NCBI GenBank assembly: GCA_903908245.1
Contig: CAIVRE010000014.1
Span: 31,963 to 95,962, forward strand
From: Candidatus Omnitrophota bacterium
GTDB taxonomy: Bacteria; Omnitrophota; Gorgyraeia; Zapsychrales; Fredricksoniimonadaceae
Reading direction: 5' to 3'
Length of the DNA stretch: 64,000 bases
Every line of letters begins with the position of its first letter. Within the stretch, counting starts at the first letter, position 1. Under the pieces are notes generated by a model that was given only the letters and a program-made list of their open reading frames with translations, was not told the DNA's origin and made no database searches. The position numbers and the translations under genes were made by a program. Positions 866 through 28,820 of this stretch are shown here, piece by piece.

Positions 866-1936
866 ATGAATAAAACGCCCGAAGGGGCCGAAGGCCCCCG
901 CATCAAGCACTACCTTGACCTGGCGATCAAATACCAGGCATCGGACATCCACCTGGTCGCCGGACAGCCGCCGGTGTACCGTGTCCAGGGCGCATTGATG
1001 ACCGTCGACCTTCCTTCCATTGATGCGGAGTATCTGCAGGAAGTGATCAACGAAATGTTCAATCAATCGCAACGCGAAACATTCTCAAAGACCCATGAGC
1101 TGGACTTTGCCTACTCCTGCGTTAAAGGCTATTGCTTCCGCGTGAATGTCCATCAGGAACGCGGCAATGTCGCGGCCACAATCCGTATCATGCCGAGCTC
1201 GCTCACCAGCCTTGAACTGCTGGGCCTTCCGCCGTCGATCGGAGAACTGGCCCTGAAGCGGTCGGGGCTCATCCTTATCATCGGGCGCGCCGGCTCCGGA
1301 AAAACAACAACAATGACGCACATGGTCGAGCATATCAACCAGAACTGCCGGCTAAAGATCATCACCATCGAAGACCCGATCGAATATATGCACACGTCCA
1401 AGAAAAGCCTGATCACCCAGCGGGAAGTCGGAGAAGATACCGCCTCCTTCACCGCCGGGCTGAAATACGCGCTGCGGCAGGACCCGGATGTGGTCGTGGT
1501 CGGTGAAATGCGCGACCTGGATTCCATCTCCATGGCACTGACGACCGCAGAGACCGGGCACCTGGTGCTGGGGACCCTCCACGCACCCGACGCGATCGAA
1601 GCCATCAATCGCATCATTGACGTTTACCCCGGAGACAAACAGAACCAGATCCGGGTGCAAATGGCGGAAAACATGCTCGCGGTCATCGGCCAGCACCTTC
1701 TCCCCAAGAAAGACGCTTCCGGAAGGGTGCTCGCGTCCGAACTGATCGTCACCACCATGGCCATCCGCAACATGATCCGGCGCAACGCCCTGGCCGAGAT
1801 CCGCAGCCAAATGGAAACCGGACGGGAAGGCATGTACACGCTGGAACAATGCCTCTCTTCCCTGGTCAAACGCGACATCGTGGCGCCCGACGTAGCCCAA
1901 AGCCACGCCAAATTCCCGTCACTTCTCGAGTTTTAA
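866..1936 (+). CDS. pilT: Type IV pilus retraction ATPase PilT
   Basis: Walker A GRAGSGKTTT, Asp box, His box; PilT/PilU length (356 aa); lacks the tetracysteine motif of PilB. Confidence 0.85.
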   Translation: MNKTPEGAEGPRIKHYLDLAIKYQASDIHLVAGQPPVYRVQGALMTVDLPSIDAEYLQEVINEMFNQSQRETFSKTHELDFAYSCVKGYCFRVNVHQERGNVAATIRIMPSSLTSLELLGLPPSIGELALKRSGLILIIGRAGSGKTTTMTHMVEHINQNCRLKIITIEDPIEYMHTSKKSLITQREVGEDTASFTAGLKYALRQDPDVVVVGEMRDLDSISMALTTAETGHLVLGTLHAPDAIEAINRIIDVYPGDKQNQIRVQMAENMLAVIGQHLLPKKDASGRVLASELIVTTMAIRNMIRRNALAEIRSQMETGREGMYTLEQCLSSLVKRDIVAPDVAQSHAKFPSLLEF

Positions 1937-2010
1937 TTAGGGGGACACTTTACTTAATTCACCTCGTGCTTTCTCGTATTAGGTGAATTAAGTAAAGTGT
2001 CCCCCTAATT
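1935..2010. repeat. Palindromic repeat element copy 1: perfect 30-bp inverted repeat (aattagggggacactttacttaattcacct) with 16-nt loop, doubling as bidirectional terminator
   Basis: Arms 1935-1964 and 1981-2010 are exact reverse complements; the same stem sequence recurs at 10977-11051 with a different loop. Confidence 0.65.
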
Positions 2011-2751
2011 CTACTTCACGCGGGTGGCGGTGAGGCGGGTAAAGACCGGCGCTTTGATCACAATAAAGACCGGCGCATGCCCGGGACCGGCTTCCACGTA
2101 ACCGCTCAGGCGCCCGTCGCGCACCACATTATTCTTCAAGTGCGCCTTCGGCTGCAGACGAACCACATCCACAAGCCTGTTCCCGACCGTGTGCATCTGT
2201 GTCTTGTTCCCGATGGCCAGGTCAATGGTGTAATTCTTCTCACTGTTGCACACCCTGATATCAAAACGCCTGCCCGGCTGAAGATCAAAGGTCCGGGCCA
2301 CATACACCGCGGTCACCGTATCCTGGGTGTTCTCGGGGATAGCAAACCGCTTTTCACTCCCGTCCGTGGCGCTCTTGAAATATGCCAGATGCTTGTCCTG
2401 GTCGAAATCGATCACCGCATCCTTTTTGTACCCGCCTTCACGGCGATGAACCTCATGCCGCAGGGAATAAAGGCGCTCCGCATCAAGATAAGAAACATAA
2501 TGGTCCTCCACGCGGTACAACTTGGAACACAGGCCGACCGTACGCGCCGTGACCTCGATCCGGTAAACTTTCCGCCCTCTCAACTCCGTCAGACCCTTGA
2601 TCTCGGAAGTGATCTCCCCCGCCGTTATCCCGAGCCATTTGATCTTAAAGACCACGGACTCTTTCTCGGGCAAGGACCAGCCCTTGTCCGCGGCATGAGC
2701 GGACGAGGCGCAACACAGGATAAAAAATATTACAGCAATGACTGTTCTCAT
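2011..2751 (-). CDS. Secreted protein, probable DUF3108-like
   Basis: N-terminal signal peptide MRTVIAVIFFILCCASSAHA; size and composition recall DUF3108; no catalytic motif seen. Confidence 0.35.
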   Translation of the reverse strand: MRTVIAVIFFILCCASSAHAADKGWSLPEKESVVFKIKWLGITAGEITSEIKGLTELRGRKVYRIEVTARTVGLCSKLYRVEDHYVSYLDAERLYSLRHEVHRREGGYKKDAVIDFDQDKHLAYFKSATDGSEKRFAIPENTQDTVTAVYVARTFDLQPGRRFDIRVCNSEKNYTIDLAIGNKTQMHTVGNRLVDVVRLQPKAHLKNNVVRDGRLSGYVEAGPGHAPVFIVIKAPVFTRLTATRVK

Positions 2752-2832: not shown

Positions 2833-4167
2833 ATGACCCCAAAAACCACGAAATTCTTCGTCCTCGACACCAATGTCATCCTCCATGATAGCGCCTGCCT
2901 TCACCAATTCAAGGAACATGATGTTGTTGTTCCCATCACGGTCATTGAAGAGCTCGACAAATTCAAAAAAGGCAACGAATCCCTCAACTTCCAGGCGCGG
3001 CATTTCCTGAAAGAACTCGACAAGATCAGCGCCGAAGGCATCTTTAACGGCGGGATCCCCATCGGCAGGAACAAGGGCAACCTCCTCATCAAGCTCGACC
3101 AGCGCTTCCACCCCGACCTCAAGCCGCACTTCGAGAACGACAAGCCCGACCACAAGATCCTTAACTGCGCCTATTGCCTGGCCAAAGAATACCCCAACCG
3201 CGAAGTGACCCTGGTCACCAAAGACGTGAACCTGCGGGTCAAGGCCAAAGCCATCCGGCTCATTGCCGAAGATTATACCACCGACCACGTCAAGGATATC
3301 TCGACCATTTACAAAGGCTACCGCTTTGAAGAGAACGTCTCGCGCGACGTGATCGACAGGCTCTGCCATGACCCCAATGGCGTTCCTGTAAAATCGTTCA
3401 AATCACGCAATAAATTCCGCCCCAATGAATTCGTGGTGGCCCGCAACAAGGAAATCTCCGCCCTGGGCTGTGTGGACCCGAAAGACATGATGATCAAGCA
3501 CATCACCAAGGTGAACGCGTCGGGCATCAAACCCCGGAACGTGGAACAGATGTTCGCCCTGCACGCGCTGATGAATGAAGATATCCGCCTGGTCACGGTC
3601 TCCGGCAAAGCGGGCACGGGGAAAACGCTTCTGGCCCTTGCCGCGGCGCTCGCCCAACGCGATAATTACAAACAGATATTCCTGGCACGCCCCATCATCG
3701 CGCTGTCCAACAGGGACCTGGGCTACCTTCCGGGAAGCGTGGACGAGAAAATAAGCCCTTACATGCAGCCGCTGTACGACAACCTCGGCGTGATCCAGGA
3801 CGAGAACATTGAGACCGTCGAACGCCGCGGCAGAAAATTCCAGAAAATGCTCGACGAAGAAAAGCTGGTGATCGCGCCCCTGGCTTATATCCGCGGCCGC
3901 AGCCTGGTCGACACGTACTTCATCGTGGACGAAGCCCAGAACCTCACGCCGCACGAGATCAAGACCATCATCACCCGGGCGGGCGAGAACACCAAAATGG
4001 TGTTCACCGGCGACATTTTCCAGATCGACCATCCGTACCTGGATATTTATTCCAACGGGTTAAGCTACCTGATCGACAAAATGCAGGGGCAGAAACTGTA
4101 CACACATATTTTCCTGGAAAAAGGCGAACGCTCCGAACTGGCGGAACTGGCCAGCGACCTGCTGTGA
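2833..4167 (+). CDS. PhoH-like ATPase with N-terminal PIN domain (YlaK/PhoH2 type); start trimmed from the long ORF to MTPKTTKFFVLDTNVIL
   Basis: PIN acidic residues (VLDTNV, EELD), Walker A GKAGTGKT, PhoH signature region; RBS ggagg upstream of 2833. Confidence 0.8.
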   Translation: MTPKTTKFFVLDTNVILHDSACLHQFKEHDVVVPITVIEELDKFKKGNESLNFQARHFLKELDKISAEGIFNGGIPIGRNKGNLLIKLDQRFHPDLKPHFENDKPDHKILNCAYCLAKEYPNREVTLVTKDVNLRVKAKAIRLIAEDYTTDHVKDISTIYKGYRFEENVSRDVIDRLCHDPNGVPVKSFKSRNKFRPNEFVVARNKEISALGCVDPKDMMIKHITKVNASGIKPRNVEQMFALHALMNEDIRLVTVSGKAGTGKTLLALAAALAQRDNYKQIFLARPIIALSNRDLGYLPGSVDEKISPYMQPLYDNLGVIQDENIETVERRGRKFQKMLDEEKLVIAPLAYIRGRSLVDTYFIVDEAQNLTPHEIKTIITRAGENTKMVFTGDIFQIDHPYLDIYSNGLSYLIDKMQGQKLYTHIFLEKGERSELAELASDLL

Positions 4168-4192
4168 CCGGCCACCGCAAACGGCCCGGCCC

Positions 4193-4696
4193 CTAGGCGG
4201 CCAGGCGGCCCCAATACTCGTTCCTCAAAAGGACGCCCACATTCCGGGCCGCCTTTGCCCGGTCATTCTCCCTGCCAACCACATCGGCCTTGTTGCAGGC
4301 CGGAATGCCGCCGATCAGCTGATGAACATAATTATCCTGCTCCTCGTCGCTCATGTAGCGGTCACGGATATCCTTAAGCTCCCCGGAATCGAGAAAGAAC
4401 CCTCCGCAGGAATAACATTCATCCACATTGACCTCGCGGTCACGCTCATACTTATGGGCATGCATCATGCTCCCGCATTTAGGACAGTTCAGCGGAGCCC
4501 TGTTATTGTCATTGGTCCGGGGATAATGCAGCGCGGCCTGCAATGCCTCTCCGGTCCCCTCGTTCTTTTCGTCAAGCATACGCAGCTCCAGATAATCGAA
4601 CCAGATGCCTTTACAACCCCCTTCGCACACATTGACTTTAGTGCTTATCCCGAAATCTTTTTCAACCATTGCCTTGGAACAGACCGGACAATCCAT
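4193..4696 (-). CDS. Zinc-ribbon protein with two TFIIB-type Zn-finger modules
   Basis: Two CPxC...CxxCxGxWFD/FLD GEL modules (CPVCSKAM..CEGGCKGIWFDYLEL; CPKCGSMM..CYSCGGFFLDSGEL). Confidence 0.45.
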   Translation of the reverse strand: MDCPVCSKAMVEKDFGISTKVNVCEGGCKGIWFDYLELRMLDEKNEGTGEALQAALHYPRTNDNNRAPLNCPKCGSMMHAHKYERDREVNVDECYSCGGFFLDSGELKDIRDRYMSDEEQDNYVHQLIGGIPACNKADVVGRENDRAKAARNVGVLLRNEYWGRLAA

Positions 4697-4721
4697 ATCC
4701 CCTCCTTGAAATAAAAAGATC

Positions 4722-5051
4722 CTACCATTTCTTGAAAATAAAGAACACTGCCGCGATGATAAACGCGAATCCCACCAGATAATTCCACTTGAAAGGTTCC
4801 TTTAGGTACCACACTGAAAACGCGCTGAATACCACCAAAGTAATAACTTCCTGGACGGTCTTAAGCTGTGCCGCGTTGAACTGCCCGTAGCCCCAGCGGT
4901 TGGCCGGGACCATCAGGCAATATTCAAAGAACGCGATCCCCCAACTGGCCAGAATGACCAGCCACAAAGGCTGGTCCCTGAACTTCAAATGCCCGTACCA
5001 GGCGAATGTCATAAAAATATTGGAAAAAGTCAGCAAAACGACCGTTATCAT
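4722..5051 (-). CDS. Small DMT-superfamily membrane protein (DUF486/COG3169-like)
   Basis: About 4 TM helices in 109 aa; conserved MVPANRWGY-type motif. Confidence 0.45.
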   Translation of the reverse strand: MITVVLLTFSNIFMTFAWYGHLKFRDQPLWLVILASWGIAFFEYCLMVPANRWGYGQFNAAQLKTVQEVITLVVFSAFSVWYLKEPFKWNYLVGFAFIIAAVFFIFKKW

Positions 5052-6289
5052 GCCCTGACCCTCTTCGCGATCGCGCGGGCCGCAGAAACGCCCGAGGCCC
5101 AGGCCCAGTGTAAATTAAACCCGCCGATACGGCCATCCACATCCACTACCTCGCCGGCAAAATACAGGCCTTCCTGCAAACGGGATTCCAGAGAAGCGCC
5201 TTTCAGCTCCTTAAGGTCAACACCGCCGGCAGTGATCTCGGCCTTGGGGTAACCGGCCGCATCCTTCACAGGTAAAGTGAACGCACGCAATACCCTCTCA
5301 AGGGAATGCCGGTCGTTCTTGCCGACCTCCGACATCCCCGGGCGCTTCGATCCGTCAACTCCGGCCTGCCCCAGCAATATCAATACCAGCCGCTCGGGCA
5401 ATCGCGTACCCAATAAATTCTTTAAACTTTTCTGTCCGGCACCCTGGAACAGGAAATCCACGCCATCATTCTTTACATCCGGGAAGAAATCCGCCCGCAC
5501 CTTGCCGTTCCGGGAACGAGCGTCGATCCACGCCCGGCTGATCTCCAGCGCCACCGGGCCGCTGAAACCGTGATGCGTAAAAAGCAGCGGCCCCTGGACC
5601 GCATGGACCTTCCGATGTTCCACCCATAAAGACAATCCGGCGTTCACCACAATACCCGAAAGGCTCGTGAATATTTCAGACTCTGTCGACAACGGCGTAA
5701 GCGCCGGGCGGGTGGCAACGACCTGATGCCCGAAATTTTCGGCAAATTGATATCCTGACCCATCCGAGCCGGTAACCGGATAGGACAGGCCCCCTGTCGT
5801 AACAAGCACCGCCCGCGCCCTTTCAACAGAACCGCCGGCCACCACATTGAAACAACCATCCTGGAATGCGACAGAACTGACACGCGCACCGCAACGCACC
5901 TGCGCACCGTTACCGGCCGCCGCGCCCGTCAAAGACTTCAACACGGTACGCGCGCTGTTATCTGCCGAAAAATAACAACCATCCTCCTGAAGCGCCATGG
6001 GCGCGCCCCATTGCTCAAAGAACCCAAGCGCATCACCTGTTGAAAAACCCTTGAGCACATGCCGAAGCGTGTGCGCACACCCGGCATGATAATCCTTTTC
6101 GCTGACCTTGACGTTCGTGGCGTTACAACGCCCGCCGCCGCACATCAAAAGCTTTGTACCCGGCTCTTTCTGCCCTTCCAGGACCAGGACCTTGAGTTTG
6201 AGCTTCGCGCCCTCGGCGGCGGCCATCAGCCCTGCCGCTCCCGCGCCGATAATAATAAGATCGTACGATTCATTGGCCATAAAACGCAT
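5048..6289 (-). CDS. BaiN/HI0933-family NAD(P)/FAD-dependent flavoprotein
   Basis: N-terminal dinucleotide fold DLIIIGAGAAGLMAA, family-typical length (~410 aa) and C-terminal GGxN motif region. Confidence 0.7.
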   Translation of the reverse strand: MRFMANESYDLIIIGAGAAGLMAAAEGAKLKLKVLVLEGQKEPGTKLLMCGGGRCNATNVKVSEKDYHAGCAHTLRHVLKGFSTGDALGFFEQWGAPMALQEDGCYFSADNSARTVLKSLTGAAAGNGAQVRCGARVSSVAFQDGCFNVVAGGSVERARAVLVTTGGLSYPVTGSDGSGYQFAENFGHQVVATRPALTPLSTESEIFTSLSGIVVNAGLSLWVEHRKVHAVQGPLLFTHHGFSGPVALEISRAWIDARSRNGKVRADFFPDVKNDGVDFLFQGAGQKSLKNLLGTRLPERLVLILLGQAGVDGSKRPGMSEVGKNDRHSLERVLRAFTLPVKDAAGYPKAEITAGGVDLKELKGASLESRLQEGLYFAGEVVDVDGRIGGFNLHWAWASGVSAARAIAKRVRA

Positions 6290-6997: not shown

Positions 6998-8305
6998 CTA
7001 AAAAGAAGAACGATATTTCAGGAACACCCGGTCGTCCGGCAGGTCAACAGGGGAAATTTTCATCCCCGCGGCAGAATCACTGGCCGAACCCAATGCACCG
7101 CTCGAACGGGCGGGCTTCACCTCTTTCTGCGCACCGAACAAAAGATGGCTGGTCAACTGATACTCCCCCTCCAGGCGCTGGGTCAACTCCCGCTGGCTCT
7201 GGGTATTGGTCCCCACTGCAACCCCATACCCGATCCCCAGGCGTTCCGTCAGGTCTTTCGAGATCGTCACGCCCTGCTTTTTGTCATCCGCATTAAAAGA
7301 AATGTCGCTTAAGCCCATGGCCCGGATGATCCTTACCCGGTCTCCGCCAAAAAGCAGATAATCCACAAAATTGGATGTCAGCGCCGGCGACATCCTGGCC
7401 TTATCCGACGACCCCTCAACCACCCCCGACCAGCGCTTGCCGGTCGCCAGCATCAATAAGAGCTGCTCCTTGGGACACGACGGATCGGAGGTCAAGAGCA
7501 CCTCCGGAGCCTGGCGGGTCCCTTTGACCGAAATATCAATAAGCGTACGCGCGACTTTTGAAGACGCGCGGATATCCAGTTCAGGCTTTGACGGATAGCC
7601 GGTAAATGTCAGCACGCTGGGCTTCAGCTCGATCCTGACAGCAGGACTGCGCAGATATCCGCTGTCTAAAAAAAGCTTGCCGTGCGTCTCCCAACGAGGG
7701 GATCCCCTGATGAAATGAAGGTCCGCCCTGGCCTCCACATCCTGCAGGATAAATTCATTCTGCATGATCCGCTCAATAAAGAAATGCCCGCTGACAGCCG
7801 GCCGGTCCAGTGTTCCCCCAACGAACAGGTCAATATCGCGCAATGCCCCCTTGAACGGCGGGACTTCAAAGAACTTCGTCAAAACACCACGCACATTGCC
7901 CAGGTCAAGGCCGCGGGTATACACATTTCCCGCAACTTCCTTTCCATAAAGCCGTGCGTTAAAGACAACAGGATCATCCCCCGGATGGAAAAGACGCCCG
8001 TTAACGACACCGATATCCAGGCCTTCCAGGGAAAACCGGTTAAAACGGATCGAAAGCGACTGAACCCGGAGAAAACTGGACTCGGGCAGATACGGAATGA
8101 TCCGGACCTCGAGCTGGTCGGCCTTGATACCGCCGATCAGGCTGCCTTCGAGGGCCGCCCATGATACAGTGCGCGCGCCCAATGTCCGGCGGGCGAGCTC
8201 CCTGACAACGGTCTTCGCGCCCCAGGGCGTAAACCCGAGCCATGCAACGAACCCGGCCAAAAGCAGGATCAAACCAACCATGATGGAAAGAAGTACGCGC
8301 ATCAC
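6998..8305 (-). CDS. Membrane-anchored TamB/AsmA-like protein (DUF490-like C-terminus)
   Basis: Single N-terminal TM anchor, long beta-rich periplasmic body, C-terminal region resembling TamB DUF490. Confidence 0.4.
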   Translation of the reverse strand: MMRVLLSIMVGLILLLAGFVAWLGFTPWGAKTVVRELARRTLGARTVSWAALEGSLIGGIKADQLEVRIIPYLPESSFLRVQSLSIRFNRFSLEGLDIGVVNGRLFHPGDDPVVFNARLYGKEVAGNVYTRGLDLGNVRGVLTKFFEVPPFKGALRDIDLFVGGTLDRPAVSGHFFIERIMQNEFILQDVEARADLHFIRGSPRWETHGKLFLDSGYLRSPAVRIELKPSVLTFTGYPSKPELDIRASSKVARTLIDISVKGTRQAPEVLLTSDPSCPKEQLLLMLATGKRWSGVVEGSSDKARMSPALTSNFVDYLLFGGDRVRIIRAMGLSDISFNADDKKQGVTISKDLTERLGIGYGVAVGTNTQSQRELTQRLEGEYQLTSHLLFGAQKEVKPARSSGALGSASDSAAGMKISPVDLPDDRVFLKYRSSF

Positions 8306-10557: not shown

Positions 10558-10956
10558 TCATTTCTTAAAACAAACACTGCAAGGCTTATAACCATCCTTC
10601 TCGGCCGCAGCCGCATCCTTATAATAGACCTTGTTGGCCGTGTCCATATTGCCGACCATTTTGCAGGACTGCTTGTGATACTTCTGGCCGCCCTTGGTCG
10701 CCACCAGCGCATCGGCTGAAGTCGGAGGGTTGCAGGTTTTACACGCGGTATACCCCGCCTTTATCGCCGCCTCGGGCGACGCAAACTTCACCAGCTTTTC
10801 AGCCGGGATCTTCTTGGCCACCGGGCATGAAACAACATGGAACTTTTCGCCGCCCTTACTGGCCACATAACCCGCTCCCGTCTCCTGCGCCATCGCGACA
10901 CCGGAAAGCAAAAGCATTAACGCGCCTGACATTAAAACAGATACGATCTTTTTCAT
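10558..10956 (-). CDS. Secreted protein with two tandem Ada-type Cys4 zinc-binding-like modules
   Basis: Signal peptide; two repeats of GG(E/Q)K(F/Y)H...C...FAS/YKDAAAA..GY..CK.C matching the Ada N-terminal Zn-binding pattern. Confidence 0.4.
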   Translation of the reverse strand: MKKIVSVLMSGALMLLLSGVAMAQETGAGYVASKGGEKFHVVSCPVAKKIPAEKLVKFASPEAAIKAGYTACKTCNPPTSADALVATKGGQKYHKQSCKMVGNMDTANKVYYKDAAAAEKDGYKPCSVCFKK

Positions 10957-10976
10957 ACCACACCTCCACGTTTAAG

Positions 10977-11051
10977 AATTAGGGGGACACTTTACTTAAT
11001 TCATCAAGTGCATAAAACAAGCGATTTGAATTAAGTAAAGTGTCCCCCTAT
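10977..11051. repeat. Palindromic repeat element copy 2 (same stem as 1935-2010, different 23-nt loop)
   Basis: Arms 10980-11003 and 11027-11050 (tagggggacactttacttaattca) are exact reverse complements; identical to the copy-1 stem. Confidence 0.65.
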
Positions 11052-11061
11052 TTATTATTTA

Positions 11062-12306
11062 TTAACGCCTGCGGAACCTTCCGCCGGCACCGGCACGGGG
11101 ACGGAAACTGCGCCCGCCGAACTTCTTGACACCACCAGCCGGAGCATGCACGGACGGCGGCTTAAGCCAGAACTCCTGCGCCGGAACTTCAGGATGGGTC
11201 GCGACCGGAATATCGATCTGCACCAGTTTCTGAATGCTGCGCACCTCTTCGAACTGATCAGGTGTTGCAAAAGAAATGGCGCGGCCTTCCAGTCCCGCAC
11301 GCGCAGTGCGTCCGATACGATGCACATAATTATCAGCATCATCAGGCAAGTCGTAATTAATGACCAGTTCAATGTTCTTCACATCAATACCGCGGGCGGC
11401 GATATCCGTTGCCACCAGCACACGGTAACGGCCGACCTTGAAGCCTTCCAGCGCGGCTTTGCGCTGTCCGAGCGAACGGTCGGAATGGATCTCCGCCGCG
11501 TTGATATTCATTTTTTTAAGGTCCATCGTGATCTTGCGCGCGCCATGTTTGGTGCGGCTGAACACCAGGACCGAACCGCGGTACTGGGCAAGGACCTTCT
11601 GCAAAAGAAGATTCTTCTGCTCGCGATTAATAATATAAAGCTCCTGCGTCACATTGGTAGCAACTGTCCCCGAACGGGCGACTTCAATATGAATAGGAAG
11701 CTTCATGTGTCGGGACGTTAACGTCATGATCTCGCGCGGCATCGTTGCCGAGAAAAGCATGGTCTGGCGTTCCTTGGGAATAAAACGGAGGATCTGCTCG
11801 ATCTGCGGCGCAAAACCCATATCGAACATGCGGTCAGCCTCGTCAAGGACAAGGATGCTCACATTGTCCAGCTTGAGCGTATGACGCTCGGTCACATGGT
11901 CGATCAGACGGCCGGGTGTCGCCACGATCACACGGGGATTGCGGCGCAAGCCGCGGATCTGCTCGTCCATCGGCGCGCCGCCGATAAGAACGACCGACTG
12001 AATACCAAAAGCCGGCGCCACCTTGCGGATAGTCTCTTCAACCTGATATGCCAGCTCACGCGTAGGCACCAGGATAAGGCCAATGCCTTTTCCCGCCGCC
12101 AGGCGCTGAACCATCGGAATGGCGAACGCAAGCGTCTTGCCTGTTCCGGTCTGAGCCACACCCATCACGTCTTTCCCTTCGATAGCAAGGGGGATCGCTT
12201 TGTGCTGAATCGGTGTCGGCGTCTTGAACTTCATCTTTTCAAGCATTTCCAACACTTTGGGCGCGATACCGAGCCCATAAAAACTTGTTTCCTGATTTTC
12301 ACTCAT
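11062..12306 (-). CDS. DEAD-box ATP-dependent RNA helicase with C-terminal RGG tail
   Basis: Q motif, Walker A AQTGTGKT, DEAD box (VLDEADRM), SAT, HRIGRTAR motifs; Arg/Gly-rich C-terminus. Confidence 0.85.
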   Translation of the reverse strand: MSENQETSFYGLGIAPKVLEMLEKMKFKTPTPIQHKAIPLAIEGKDVMGVAQTGTGKTLAFAIPMVQRLAAGKGIGLILVPTRELAYQVEETIRKVAPAFGIQSVVLIGGAPMDEQIRGLRRNPRVIVATPGRLIDHVTERHTLKLDNVSILVLDEADRMFDMGFAPQIEQILRFIPKERQTMLFSATMPREIMTLTSRHMKLPIHIEVARSGTVATNVTQELYIINREQKNLLLQKVLAQYRGSVLVFSRTKHGARKITMDLKKMNINAAEIHSDRSLGQRKAALEGFKVGRYRVLVATDIAARGIDVKNIELVINYDLPDDADNYVHRIGRTARAGLEGRAISFATPDQFEEVRSIQKLVQIDIPVATHPEVPAQEFWLKPPSVHAPAGGVKKFGGRSFRPRAGAGGRFRRR

Positions 12307-26915: not shown

Positions 26916-28820
26916 TCAGGAACCGGCCTCATTCCGCTTCGCTTCCAGCTCTTCCCAGCGACGATAAAGATCGACTATGGCAAAAGCCAGCCCTTCCGAA
27001 CGGGACTTGGCCCCGGCGATCTCGTCGGGGTCTTTTTTATAAAATTCCGGGTCCGCCAGTAATGCGCATAATTTGGTTTGCTCGTACTCCATCTCTTCGA
27101 TCTTGCCCGCAAAACTTTCCAGCTCGCGCATTTCCTTGAACGACAGCTTCCCGGCAGTGGAAGGCTTTTCCGCCGCCGCGCTCTTTTTCCCCGGCCGGTC
27201 TTCCGGCTGGACAGGCCCGACCCCGTTGGCTTTCTGCTGCAGCCAGTCATCATACCCGCCCGGATATTCATTGATATCGCCATTGCCCTCAAAGACCAGC
27301 GTTGAGGTCACCACATTATTGAGAAAAGACCGGTCATGGCTGACCAGGATCAGCGTTCCGGTGTATTCCACCAGAAGCTCCTCAAGAAGCTCCAGTGTTT
27401 CTATATCCAGGTCATTGGTCGGCTCGTCCATCACAAGGACATTCGCCGGCTTGGTGAATAACCGCGCCAGGAAGAGGCGATTGCGCTCTCCGCCCGAAAG
27501 GACCCTCACGGGCGTACGCGCCCGGTCAGGCGTGAACAGGAAATCCTGCAGGTACCCGATGACATGCCGCGGCTTGCCGTTGATCATCACACTGTCGGCT
27601 TCACCGGAAATGTTCTCGATGACCGTCTTGTTCTCGTCCAACCCTTCACGCAATTGATCGTAGTAAGCCACCTGCAGTTCGGTGCCGAAACGGATGGACC
27701 CTTTCGTGGGCGGCATTTTATTGAGCAGGATCCGCAGGAACGTGCTTTTCCCGCAGCCGTTCGCGCCGATGACCCCGATCTTGTCGCCGCGCATGATATT
27801 GGCCGAAAAATCACGAATCAGGCATTTATCGCCGTAAGAAAAACCGATACGGGAAGCCTTGACGATCAGATGGCCCGAAAGTTCGGTCTCCTGCGCCCTC
27901 ATCCGCACGACTCCGTCGCGCTGACGCAGCCTTCTTTTGGCCTCGCGCATCTCCTCGAGCGCCTTCACCCGGCCTTCATTGCGGCAGCGGCGCGCCTTGA
28001 CCCCCTGGCGCACCCAGACCTCTTCTTCGGCGAGCTTCTTGCCGAACTTGGCCAGACGGGCGCCTTCGATGGTGTCATTGAGCGCGCTGCGTTCCAGATA
28101 CTCGCGATAGCCGCACGACCAGCTGAACAGCTTGCCCCGATCGATTTCCAGGATACGCGTGGTCAAATGCTCCATGAACTGCCGGTCATGCGTAATAAAG
28201 AATACAGTGCCGGGATATTCCTTAAGGAAACCTTCCAGCCAGATGATGGAATCAATATCCAGATGGTTGGTCGGCTCATCAAGAAGAAGGATATCGGGCT
28301 TGCGGACCAGCGCGCGGGCCAAAAGCGCGCGGCGCTTCTGACCGCCGGAAAGGCTCGAAAATTCATCATCACCATTAAGTTTCAGTTTCGCAACAACCTC
28401 CTCCGCCTGATGGTCAAGCTCCCAGCCGTTGGTGCGGTCGAGTTCGGCCTGAAGCACGTCAAGCCTGCGAAGGATCTCTTTGGAATGGTCGGTATGCAGA
28501 AGATGCGTCACATGATGATAATCCTTCAGGAGGGTCGCACGCTCCCCCAGCCCCGAAAGCGCGACCTCAAAAACCGTCCCCTCGACATCCTGGGGAACAT
28601 CCTGCGGCAGATACGCCACCTCGATGCCTTTTTGAAAACATACGACCCCGTCGTCCGGACCGGTCTCGCCGGCCAGAAGGCGCATCATGGTGGTCTTTCC
28701 GGCGCCGTTGCGCCCCAGGAGCGCCACACGCTCGCGGGCCTCCAGCTGCAGGCTCACGCCGTCAAGCACACGAGGGCCGCCGAAAGCAACGACAACATCC
28801 TGTAAACTGATCAGAGCCAT
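26916..28820 (-). CDS. ABC-F family ATPase (Uup/EttA-like: two ABC domains, interdomain linker, C-terminal coiled coil)
   Basis: Two Walker A (GRNGAGKT, GANGCGKS), two LSGG signatures, no TM domain. Confidence 0.85.
   Translation of the reverse strand: MALISLQDVVVAFGGPRVLDGVSLQLEARERVALLGRNGAGKTTMMRLLAGETGPDDGVVCFQKGIEVAYLPQDVPQDVEGTVFEVALSGLGERATLLKDYHHVTHLLHTDHSKEILRRLDVLQAELDRTNGWELDHQAEEVVAKLKLNGDDEFSSLSGGQKRRALLARALVRKPDILLLDEPTNHLDIDSIIWLEGFLKEYPGTVFFITHDRQFMEHLTTRILEIDRGKLFSWSCGYREYLERSALNDTIEGARLAKFGKKLAEEEVWVRQGVKARRCRNEGRVKALEEMREAKRRLRQRDGVVRMRAQETELSGHLIVKASRIGFSYGDKCLIRDFSANIMRGDKIGVIGANGCGKSTFLRILLNKMPPTKGSIRFGTELQVAYYDQLREGLDENKTVIENISGEADSVMINGKPRHVIGYLQDFLFTPDRARTPVRVLSGGERNRLFLARLFTKPANVLVMDEPTNDLDIETLELLEELLVEYTGTLILVSHDRSFLNNVVTSTLVFEGNGDINEYPGGYDDWLQQKANGVGPVQPEDRPGKKSAAAEKPSTAGKLSFKEMRELESFAGKIEEMEYEQTKLCALLADPEFYKKDPDEIAGAKSRSEGLAFAIVDLYRRWEELEAKRNEAGS

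Follow-up and report, generated by a model that had tools for sequence, protein, structure and literature searches.

The closest described counterparts of the sequences examined here are the TIRYTs and TIRtrons, which were defined by Di Nocera, De Gregorio & Rocco in 2013 (PMC3733652). [quoted passage not shown] Many TIRs have the motif GGGGWSAS (PMC3733652, PMC6006769). In the survey of Quentin et al. 2018 (PMC6006769), most TIRYTs belong to subclass 2.1 of the TnpAY1 proteins, equivalent to group 1 of Bertels, which is described by the motifs NHVH or NH[YF]H, W[EQ], and YIELNP or Y[IV]HLNP, by a median length of 238 aa and by a C-terminal HTH-like domain (Bac_DnaA_C, HTH_23 or HTH_28), and for which no REP-like secondary structures were reported. 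Of the RAYT groups, group 1 is distributed most widely; its members include plasmid-borne ones, and the 16-mers that flank them are few (Bertels et al. 2017, PMC5581495). TIR dimers associated with TIRYTs are a known but poorly studied kind of element; the term TIRYT is rare in the literature that we searched, and no biochemistry of any TIRYT is reported there.

In the 64-kb stretch of Candidatus Omnitrophota DNA analysed for the current report (the window), two hairpin-forming sequences are built from the same pair of arms. Copy 1 (1935-2010, 76 nt) consists of a left arm on the plus strand (1935..1964, AATTAGGGGGACACTTTACTTAATTCACCT, with the GGGG end outward), a 16-nt spacer (1965..1980, CGTGCTTTCTCGTATT) and a right arm on the minus strand (1981..2010) that is the exact reverse complement of the left one, the two 30-nt arms being 100% complementary. 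The left arm fits the consensus AATTCSGGGGACACTTTACTTAATTC of a wider family that is described below. Copy 2 (10977-11053) repeats ~27 nt of each copy 1 arm, with its left arm at 10977..11003 on the plus strand (AATTAGGGGGACACTTTACTTAATTCA), its right arm at 11027..11053 on the minus strand (TGAATTAAGTAAAGTGTCCCCCTATTT) and between them a 23-nt spacer (11004..11026) that is unrelated to the spacer of copy 1. When the 30-mer of copy 1 is compared with the copy 2 arms there are 2 and 3 mismatches, which are confined to the inner or outer ends. The outer pentamer of the copy 2 right arm is degenerate (AAATA in place of AATTA). All four arms contain the 20-mer core GGGGGACACTTTACTTAATT without a mismatch, each of them begins with GGGGACAC, a match to the TIRYT motif GGGGWSAS, and TA adjoins GGGGG...CCCCC on both sides of both copies. 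The number of matches to the arm expected by chance, from dinucleotide-preserving shuffles, is zero. Neither a third copy of the arm nor a similar palindrome with GGGGWSAS was found within the 64 kb, and no Rfam family matched anywhere in the window at gathering thresholds.

The internal complementarity of a single arm (GGGGGACACTTTACTTAATT) is limited to AATT, and formation of the hairpin needs the pair of arms. The resulting stem is AT-rich and 25-30 bp long, and RNA folding yields energies of -57/-51 kcal/mol for copy 1 and -44/-43 kcal/mol for copy 2, with z-scores between -7 and -13. Independent assemblies of this organism (L133, L134, L136 and L137) agree in all 76 nt of copy 1, and the hairpin is therefore not an assembly artefact.

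Copy 1 occupies the whole of the 74-nt gap between the stop codons of two convergent genes, one for a PilT-like T2SSE ATPase (866..1936, plus strand) and the other for a DUF3108 protein (2011..2751, minus strand). The pilT-like gene ends in a TAA whose last two bases are the first two of the left arm of copy 1, the right arm abuts the DUF3108 stop codon (2011-2013), and both proteins keep their native C-termini (..LEF and ..TRVK, respectively, each followed directly by the stop). Copy 2 sits in the 105-nt spacer between a gene for a DEAD-box RNA helicase (11062..12306, minus strand), which lies upstream of it in the direction of transcription, and a small gene with an Ada metal-binding (Zn) domain (10558..10956, minus strand), which lies directly downstream. 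On the minus strand, 20 nt with a GGAGG ribosome-binding site separate the left arm of copy 2 from the start codon of the Ada-like gene; the distance from the right arm to the helicase stop codon is ~8-13 nt, and this interval is AT-rich. The best matches of the neighbouring genes are in metagenome-assembled genomes (MAGs) of Candidatus Omnitrophota. An earlier, sequence-only reading of the window had described a 30-nt stem with its exact reverse complement and a 16-nt loop after pilT, and a second copy with a different 23-nt loop in the gap between the helicase and Ada-like genes, both at gene ends; all of this is borne out here, the arms of the second copy being ~27 nt long.

The arm is present in more than 130 public loci distributed over several phyla. 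Among species-representative genomes, 12 stretches contain the exact 20-mer, under the labels Desulfospira (complete chromosomes), Omnitrophota, Planctomycetota, Nitrospirae, Aminicenantes and Thermodesulfobacteriota, and an 18-mer occurs in at least 120 metagenome loci; the complete Desulfospira chromosomes have 1 and 3 exact-20-mer loci. Alignment of 137 unique contexts yields a logo with a sharply bounded unit, AATTC-S-GGGGACACTTTACTTAATT-C, which can also be written AATTC-S-G-GGGACACTTTACTTAATT-C, and conservation stops at the edges of this unit. Since these loci were mostly found by an exact match to the arm, its apparent invariance is partly an effect of ascertainment. Arms occur singly, in tandem as direct copies (L007, L023), in arrays (L148) or as inverted dimers, of which the loci listed have 42, spaced by 3-147 nt. 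Some of the dimers retain the last ~15 codons of a TIRYT gene (L116, L131/L040), and these are internal-deletion intermediates; at the other extreme the arms are just 3-6 nt apart. Other dimers share a spacer with a dimer at a different site (twice each in L046, L003 and L012, and also L028/L038), and such recurrence of identical spacers within some genomes fits the copying of the dimer as a unit. A minority variant, TA|GGGGG, with A at position -3 as in 17 of the 137 arms, is common to all four arms of the window and to an arm pair of another Omnitrophota MAG (L004); judged by these sequences, the shared variant points to a lineage-specific subfamily. A full-text search with the arm sequence AATTCSGGGGACACTTTACTTAATTC, as the 16-mer GACACTTTACTTAATT, did not find it in the searchable literature. 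Its occurrence in the Omnitrophota and its near-identity across phyla are likewise absent from the papers that we consulted.

The protein associated with this arm can be recognised from loci in which one ORF, 219-243 aa long, lies between a pair of inverted arms spaced by ~705-745 nt (10 metagenome loci among those listed). For nine of these loci the interval from the end of the 5' arm to the start codon is 36-38 nt, and the final 6-10 nt of the ORF are shared with the 3' arm, the TAA stop codon being located inside AATTAAGTAAAG; in the tenth (L088) the interval is 75 nt. Over all, the TIRYT gene or fragments of it lie beside the arms in ~18 of 132 loci, which total 0.77 Mb. The enclosed ORF matches the Pfam family Y1_Tnp (E 4e-14) and scores 76.7 bits against the NCBIfam model REP_Tyr_transpos, which is below the cut-off of 80; its sole relative of solved structure is the TnpA(REP) of E. 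coli (4ER8). It is 64% identical over the full length (E 2e-107) to GSU2396, which is listed as a TIRYT in supplement 5 of PMC3733652. The motifs seen in an alignment of six sequences, NH(I/V)H, LWQGRF (LFQ in L094) and RY(V/I)E(L/R)NPV, together with the length of 219-243 aa, agree with the description of TnpAY1 subclass 2.1. The C-terminal 83-84 aa have no Pfam match to an HTH at E <= 10; the tail itself is conserved among the aligned TIRYTs (TGRPLG...GPK).

Homologues in two cultured bacteria were found through the protein and not through the DNA, and they confirm the link between arm and gene. In both of them, Desulforapulum autotrophicum HRM2 and Desulfonema ishimotonii, a variant with one mismatch, GGGGACACCTTACTTAATT, stands on the two sides of the gene; HRM2 has 3-4 copies of GATCTGGGGACACCTTACTTAATT upstream and 3-5 downstream. 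On viral contigs, where the homologues are 42-44% identical, the flanking sequence is GAATTACGGTGACAGTGCACTCAAT, with the same skeleton. A search of plasmids with the TIRYT protein yielded only distant homologues (<=45% identity) and identified no vehicle of horizontal transfer. The 64-kb window has no TIRYT gene (tblastn E > 0.1); weak tblastn matches that recur at 28364-28585 fall within a gene for an ABC-F ATPase, on the opposite strand, and were set aside as noise.

Because the arms carry the motif GGGGACAC, flank TIRYT genes in other genomes and enclose there a protein with 64% identity to GSU2396, the window hairpins can be read as TIR dimers. On these comparisons of sequence it is highly probable that the arms are the TIRs of a TIRYT family and that each hairpin represents a TIRtron without its gene. 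The likeness extends to a Y1 gene of ~220-240 aa between long inverted repeats that start with GGGGWSAS, to a 3' repeat that overlaps the end of the gene, to a moderate number of dispersed copies, whether single, dimeric or grouped, and to a wide but patchy taxonomic distribution. The differences are that the window holds gene-less dimers only and that Pfam does not find the C-terminal HTH of subclass 2.1. The sequence-only reading had proposed a mobile or structural repeat of the REP or MITE kind in preference to two independent terminators. Its mobile part holds, given more than 130 loci, the RAYT-like Y1 gene that the repeat flanks and the absence of copy 1 from relatives; the family is not that of canonical REPs, in that the GTAG foot is missing, the arm is not a palindrome and the match is to the TIRs of TIRYTs.

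Absence from relatives can be seen directly at the site of copy 1. The related genomes keep the convergent pilT/DUF3108 pair, with DUF3108 proteins that are 71-81% identical and with the same ends on both proteins as in the window (LEF and TR(I/V)K before the stops), but their stop-to-stop gaps measure 3 nt (L139/L140), 1 nt (L143) and 18 nt (L141) versus 74 nt in the window. The junction in L139 reads ..GAATTT TAA ACA TTA CTTAAT.., and that in the window ..GAGTTT TAA [TTAGGGGG...CCCCCTAATT] CTA CTTCAC.. It follows from the gaps of 1-18 nt that copy 1 is an insertion into the few bases between two stop codons, present at this orthologous site in one genome and absent in others. In a genome examined as a closer relative for this site (P0004/L165) synteny is lost, the downstream gene not being pilT. 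An empty counterpart of the copy 2 site was not found in L144, L145, L146 or L147, where the sequence between the helicase and Ada-like genes is unrelated and contains other hairpins: a true GC hairpin and T-run terminator in L147, a cousin palindrome, GGGGACATGTATCAAATTC...GAATTTGGTACATGTCCC, followed by T8 in L144/L145, and another hairpin in L146. The sequence-only reading had also raised the matter of target-site duplication, and here neither a duplication nor a defined cleavage site is demonstrable; in the window TA and AATT, being palindromic, would look the same as a longer repeat. The outer pentamer of L112/L114 is inverted and not direct, which makes it part of the repeat and no duplication.

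Taken together, the best explanation is in all likelihood that the two hairpins are non-autonomous TIRtron derivatives that arrived by insertion. Each would consist of two TIRs head to head, with a short spacer in place of the gene of a parent TIRtron, a small element coding for a RAYT-like HUH/Y1 transposase of TnpAY1 subclass 2.1 (Bertels RAYT group 1). A TIRYT that resides elsewhere in the genome, or was once present there, might have moved the dimers in trans. If this enzyme behaves like TnpA(REP) and the TnpA of IS608, the arms might pair on single-stranded DNA into a stem of 25-30 bp that is recognised by the enzyme, which would then cut at the foot of the stem, where the conserved AATTC lies; a single-strand hairpin mechanism of this kind is what we infer, by analogy, for TIRYTs. 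The IS200/IS605 elements and the PATEs offer a parallel, with a Y1 HUH transposase and gene-less miniature derivatives, and their single-strand chemistry without target duplication is by analogy likely to apply here. Their ends, in contrast to the long terminal inverted repeats described here, are different sub-terminal hairpins, and the tyrosine motif is Y...NP in the present proteins and Y...Q in theirs. That the dimer was mobilised in trans as a unit, as opposed to having decayed in place, is a matter on which we put the chances at about even. The window copies have identical arms and unrelated spacers, an observation that counts against the copying of one master dimer.

The alternative that fares best is that both sites received a full TIRtron whose interior was later deleted, in which case the dimers would be remnants that have never moved and would need no transposase now. 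We regard this as a serious, though less likely, alternative. It accords with the deletion intermediates that retain the 3' end of a TIRYT gene elsewhere (L116, L131/L040), with the unrelated spacers of the two window copies and with the lack of a TIRYT gene in the window, but it would require two independent, near-total deletions that left 16 and 23 nt, neither of which contains recognisable sequence from a TIRtron interior, and the dimers that share a spacer at different sites of other genomes fit copying as a unit.

Far less credible is the reading in which the hairpins are canonical REPs or REPINs that belong to a RAYT which is domesticated and passed on vertically (Bertels groups 2/3), as known from Pseudomonas and E. 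coli. The resemblance to REPIN/RAYT systems and to the REP/BIME of E. coli with TnpA(REP) is real: the associated protein is RAYT-like, a homologous HUH/Y1 enzyme, the repeats form inverted doublets with one long hairpin that lie between genes, just after gene ends, and the transposase gene stands between its own repeats in the layout of a REPtron. At the foot of the present hairpin, though, there is AATTA/GGGGG and no GT[AG]G, nor is there any in the logo of 137 arms, and this missing foot largely refutes the canonical REP/REPIN reading. Moreover, a single arm is not self-complementary; the enzyme falls short of the REP_Tyr_transpos cut-off (76.7 bits versus 80) and has the motifs and length of subclass 2.1 and the TIRYTs, not those of subclasses 2.2/2.5; the same arm occurs in different phyla, whereas REPs are species-specific; and the copy density is low, with 2 copies in the 64 kb. 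The copy number of REPs is typically >100 per genome.

It is likewise very improbable that the hairpins are terminators or mRNA-stabilising structures that were selected by the host and share their sequence by chance. Like Rho-independent terminators, they are stable stem-loops right after gene ends, their stability as RNA is extreme, and other hairpins occupy the helicase-Ada position of relatives, one of them a real terminator (L147). Unlike such terminators, they combine an AT-rich stem of 25-30 bp with loops of 16 and 23 nt and have no U-tract on either side of either hairpin, their tails reading TAATTCTAC, TAATTAAAAC and TAATTCTTAAAC; a terminator scan found 0 terminator-like sites at 1700-2300 and 10750-11300. 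Copy 1 is missing in relatives in which the convergent gap is 1-18 nt, and a terminator function would leave unexplained why the same 25-nt arm surrounds a transposase gene in unrelated bacteria. Judged by their sequence, the hairpins are not canonical Rho-independent terminators, and the terminator role that the sequence-only reading had thought probable is unsupported, with no U-tract in either direction and a negative scan. It had further suggested stabilisation of mRNAs, and some effect of this kind at 3' ends is possible: the transcribed hairpin might protect the 3' end of the upstream mRNA or, perhaps, attenuate read-through. A meaningful effect on transcripts nevertheless strikes us as rather doubtful. 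In genomes of this sort, hairpins at gene ends should not be annotated as terminators by default.

Classical MITEs moved by a DDE transposase, such as an IS630/Tc1-like enzyme with TA duplication, are the least credible reading. The elements are indeed small, with perfect terminal inverted repeats and no coding capacity, and in the window each copy has TA on either side of GGGGG...CCCCC. In the 137 contexts, however, it is AATTC-S and not TA that is conserved outside GGGG, the outer pentamer is inverted in L112/L114 and hence part of the repeat, and the only gene found between arms codes for a Y1 transposase and never for a DDE enzyme. Several other identities were considered from the sequence and set aside, namely integron attC sites (the palindrome is perfect and has no R'/R'' boxes), CRISPR repeats (there is no array), ends of the Tn3 family (there is no 38-bp repeat ending in TAAG) and a sequencing-adapter artefact (the sequence is present in independent assemblies and in cultured genomes).

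The TIRtron interpretation turns an anonymous repeat into an interpretable footprint of a mobile element in the Omnitrophota, a candidate phylum without a cultured model. A wider reading, which we put forward tentatively and think less likely than its alternatives, is that all these loci derive from one TIRtron lineage with a near-invariant TIR of 25 nt, whose transposase has diverged to ~40% identity while the element moved between distant phyla and seeded gene-less dimers, some of them tolerated in frame inside proteins. The phylum spread on which this reading draws is robust for the Omnitrophota and Desulfobacterota, whereas Planctomycetota, Nitrospirota and Aminicenantes enter it as labels of MAGs only. 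If it were true, the TIRYTs (RAYT group 1) would be active, horizontally spreading transposons and not domesticated genes, and a defined, conserved DNA substrate would be at hand for the first biochemical test of the class. The bounded, conserved arm is in addition a substrate for asking how a Y1 transposase handles long inverted repeats as opposed to small hairpins, and there are cultured hosts of TIRYTs in D. autotrophicum HRM2, Desulfonema ishimotonii and G. sulfurreducens.

For the window itself the practical consequence is small. More notable than the window copies are the near-invariant arm across hosts, phyla and transposases with as little as 40% identity, an invariance that is partly a matter of ascertainment and of MAG labels, and the in-frame copies in Desulfospira. 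There the same dimer lies in frame inside a gene for a sigma-54 activator and is translated, much as are the Rickettsia palindromic elements (RPE) and intragenic REPs, to which it is unrelated in sequence and from which the window copies differ in being intergenic.

The two hairpins of the window, copy 1 (1935-2010, in the gap between the pilT-like and DUF3108 genes) and copy 2 (10977-11053, between the helicase and Ada genes), have arms that are identical across 27 nt, whereas their spacers are unrelated. The palindrome of copy 1 also extends into the spacer (window 1960-1964 / 1981-1985), by 4 nt (ACCT/AGGT) past the arm that is conserved in the family. Identical arms and unrelated spacers are a pair of facts that fit no simple model of copying or decay.

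Dimers (two inverted arms around a short spacer) with a remnant of the gene for TIRYT, the RAYT-like HUH/Y1 tyrosine transposase, were found at locus L116 (12456-12607), L131 (3482-4027) and L040 (689-1234). These dimers are internal-deletion intermediates, on the way from a full TIRtron, the TIRYT gene enclosed by two arms, towards a bare hairpin; their spacers retain the final ~15 codons of the gene (..KLKLQKPGSKK..*).

At the intergenic site of window copy 2, two close relatives of the window organism carry a different palindrome (L144 3252-3387; L145 1832-1967), which reads GGGGACATGTATCAAATTC(N17)GAATTTGGTACATGTCCC followed by T8 and looks like a cousin TIR family. This suggests that the helicase-Ada site has been hit repeatedly, or that one element has been replaced there by another.

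In-frame dimers occur within the sigma-54 enhancer-binding protein genes of a Desulfospira MAG (OY760175.1, L001 1710-1800) and of OY761554.1 (L008 6730-6830). Each is the same TIR dimer as in the window family, with additional partial outer copies, and lies after the AAA+ domain and before the C-terminal HTH domain, and the two species share the read-through product ..NSGDTLLNCAQLSKVSPEL.., in likeness to Rickettsia palindromic elements and intragenic REPs. At L012, dimers (5808-5900 and 7018-7100) are followed by nested copies of the outer arm end, each shorter than the last (..GTGTCCCCCGAATTACGAAGTAAAGTGTCCCCCGAATTACGGGAAGTGTCCCCCGAATTACGG), and the stop codon of an RHS/YD-repeat ORF (3492-5825) now falls within an arm (..GGHFT*).

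Solo arms occur in toxin-antitoxin-rich surroundings. At L009 (6440-6525), the truncated start of a Phd/YefM-like antitoxin runs into an arm (..AKKHLSAVI|arm) and an intact paralogue lies 1 kb downstream; at L003 (2124-2671), an arm stands in place of the HEPN partner expected for a nucleotidyltransferase gene. In Desulforapulum autotrophicum HRM2 (CP001087.1), 3-5 tandem arms on either side of the TIRYT gene (L148 1089-1232 and 2207-2375) form a REPtron-like layout, and this array-flanked gene makes the cultured organism a handy experimental system. The arms at L007 (222-290) and L023 (601-653) are tandem direct repeats with a period of about 34-35 nt, rather than inverted pairs.
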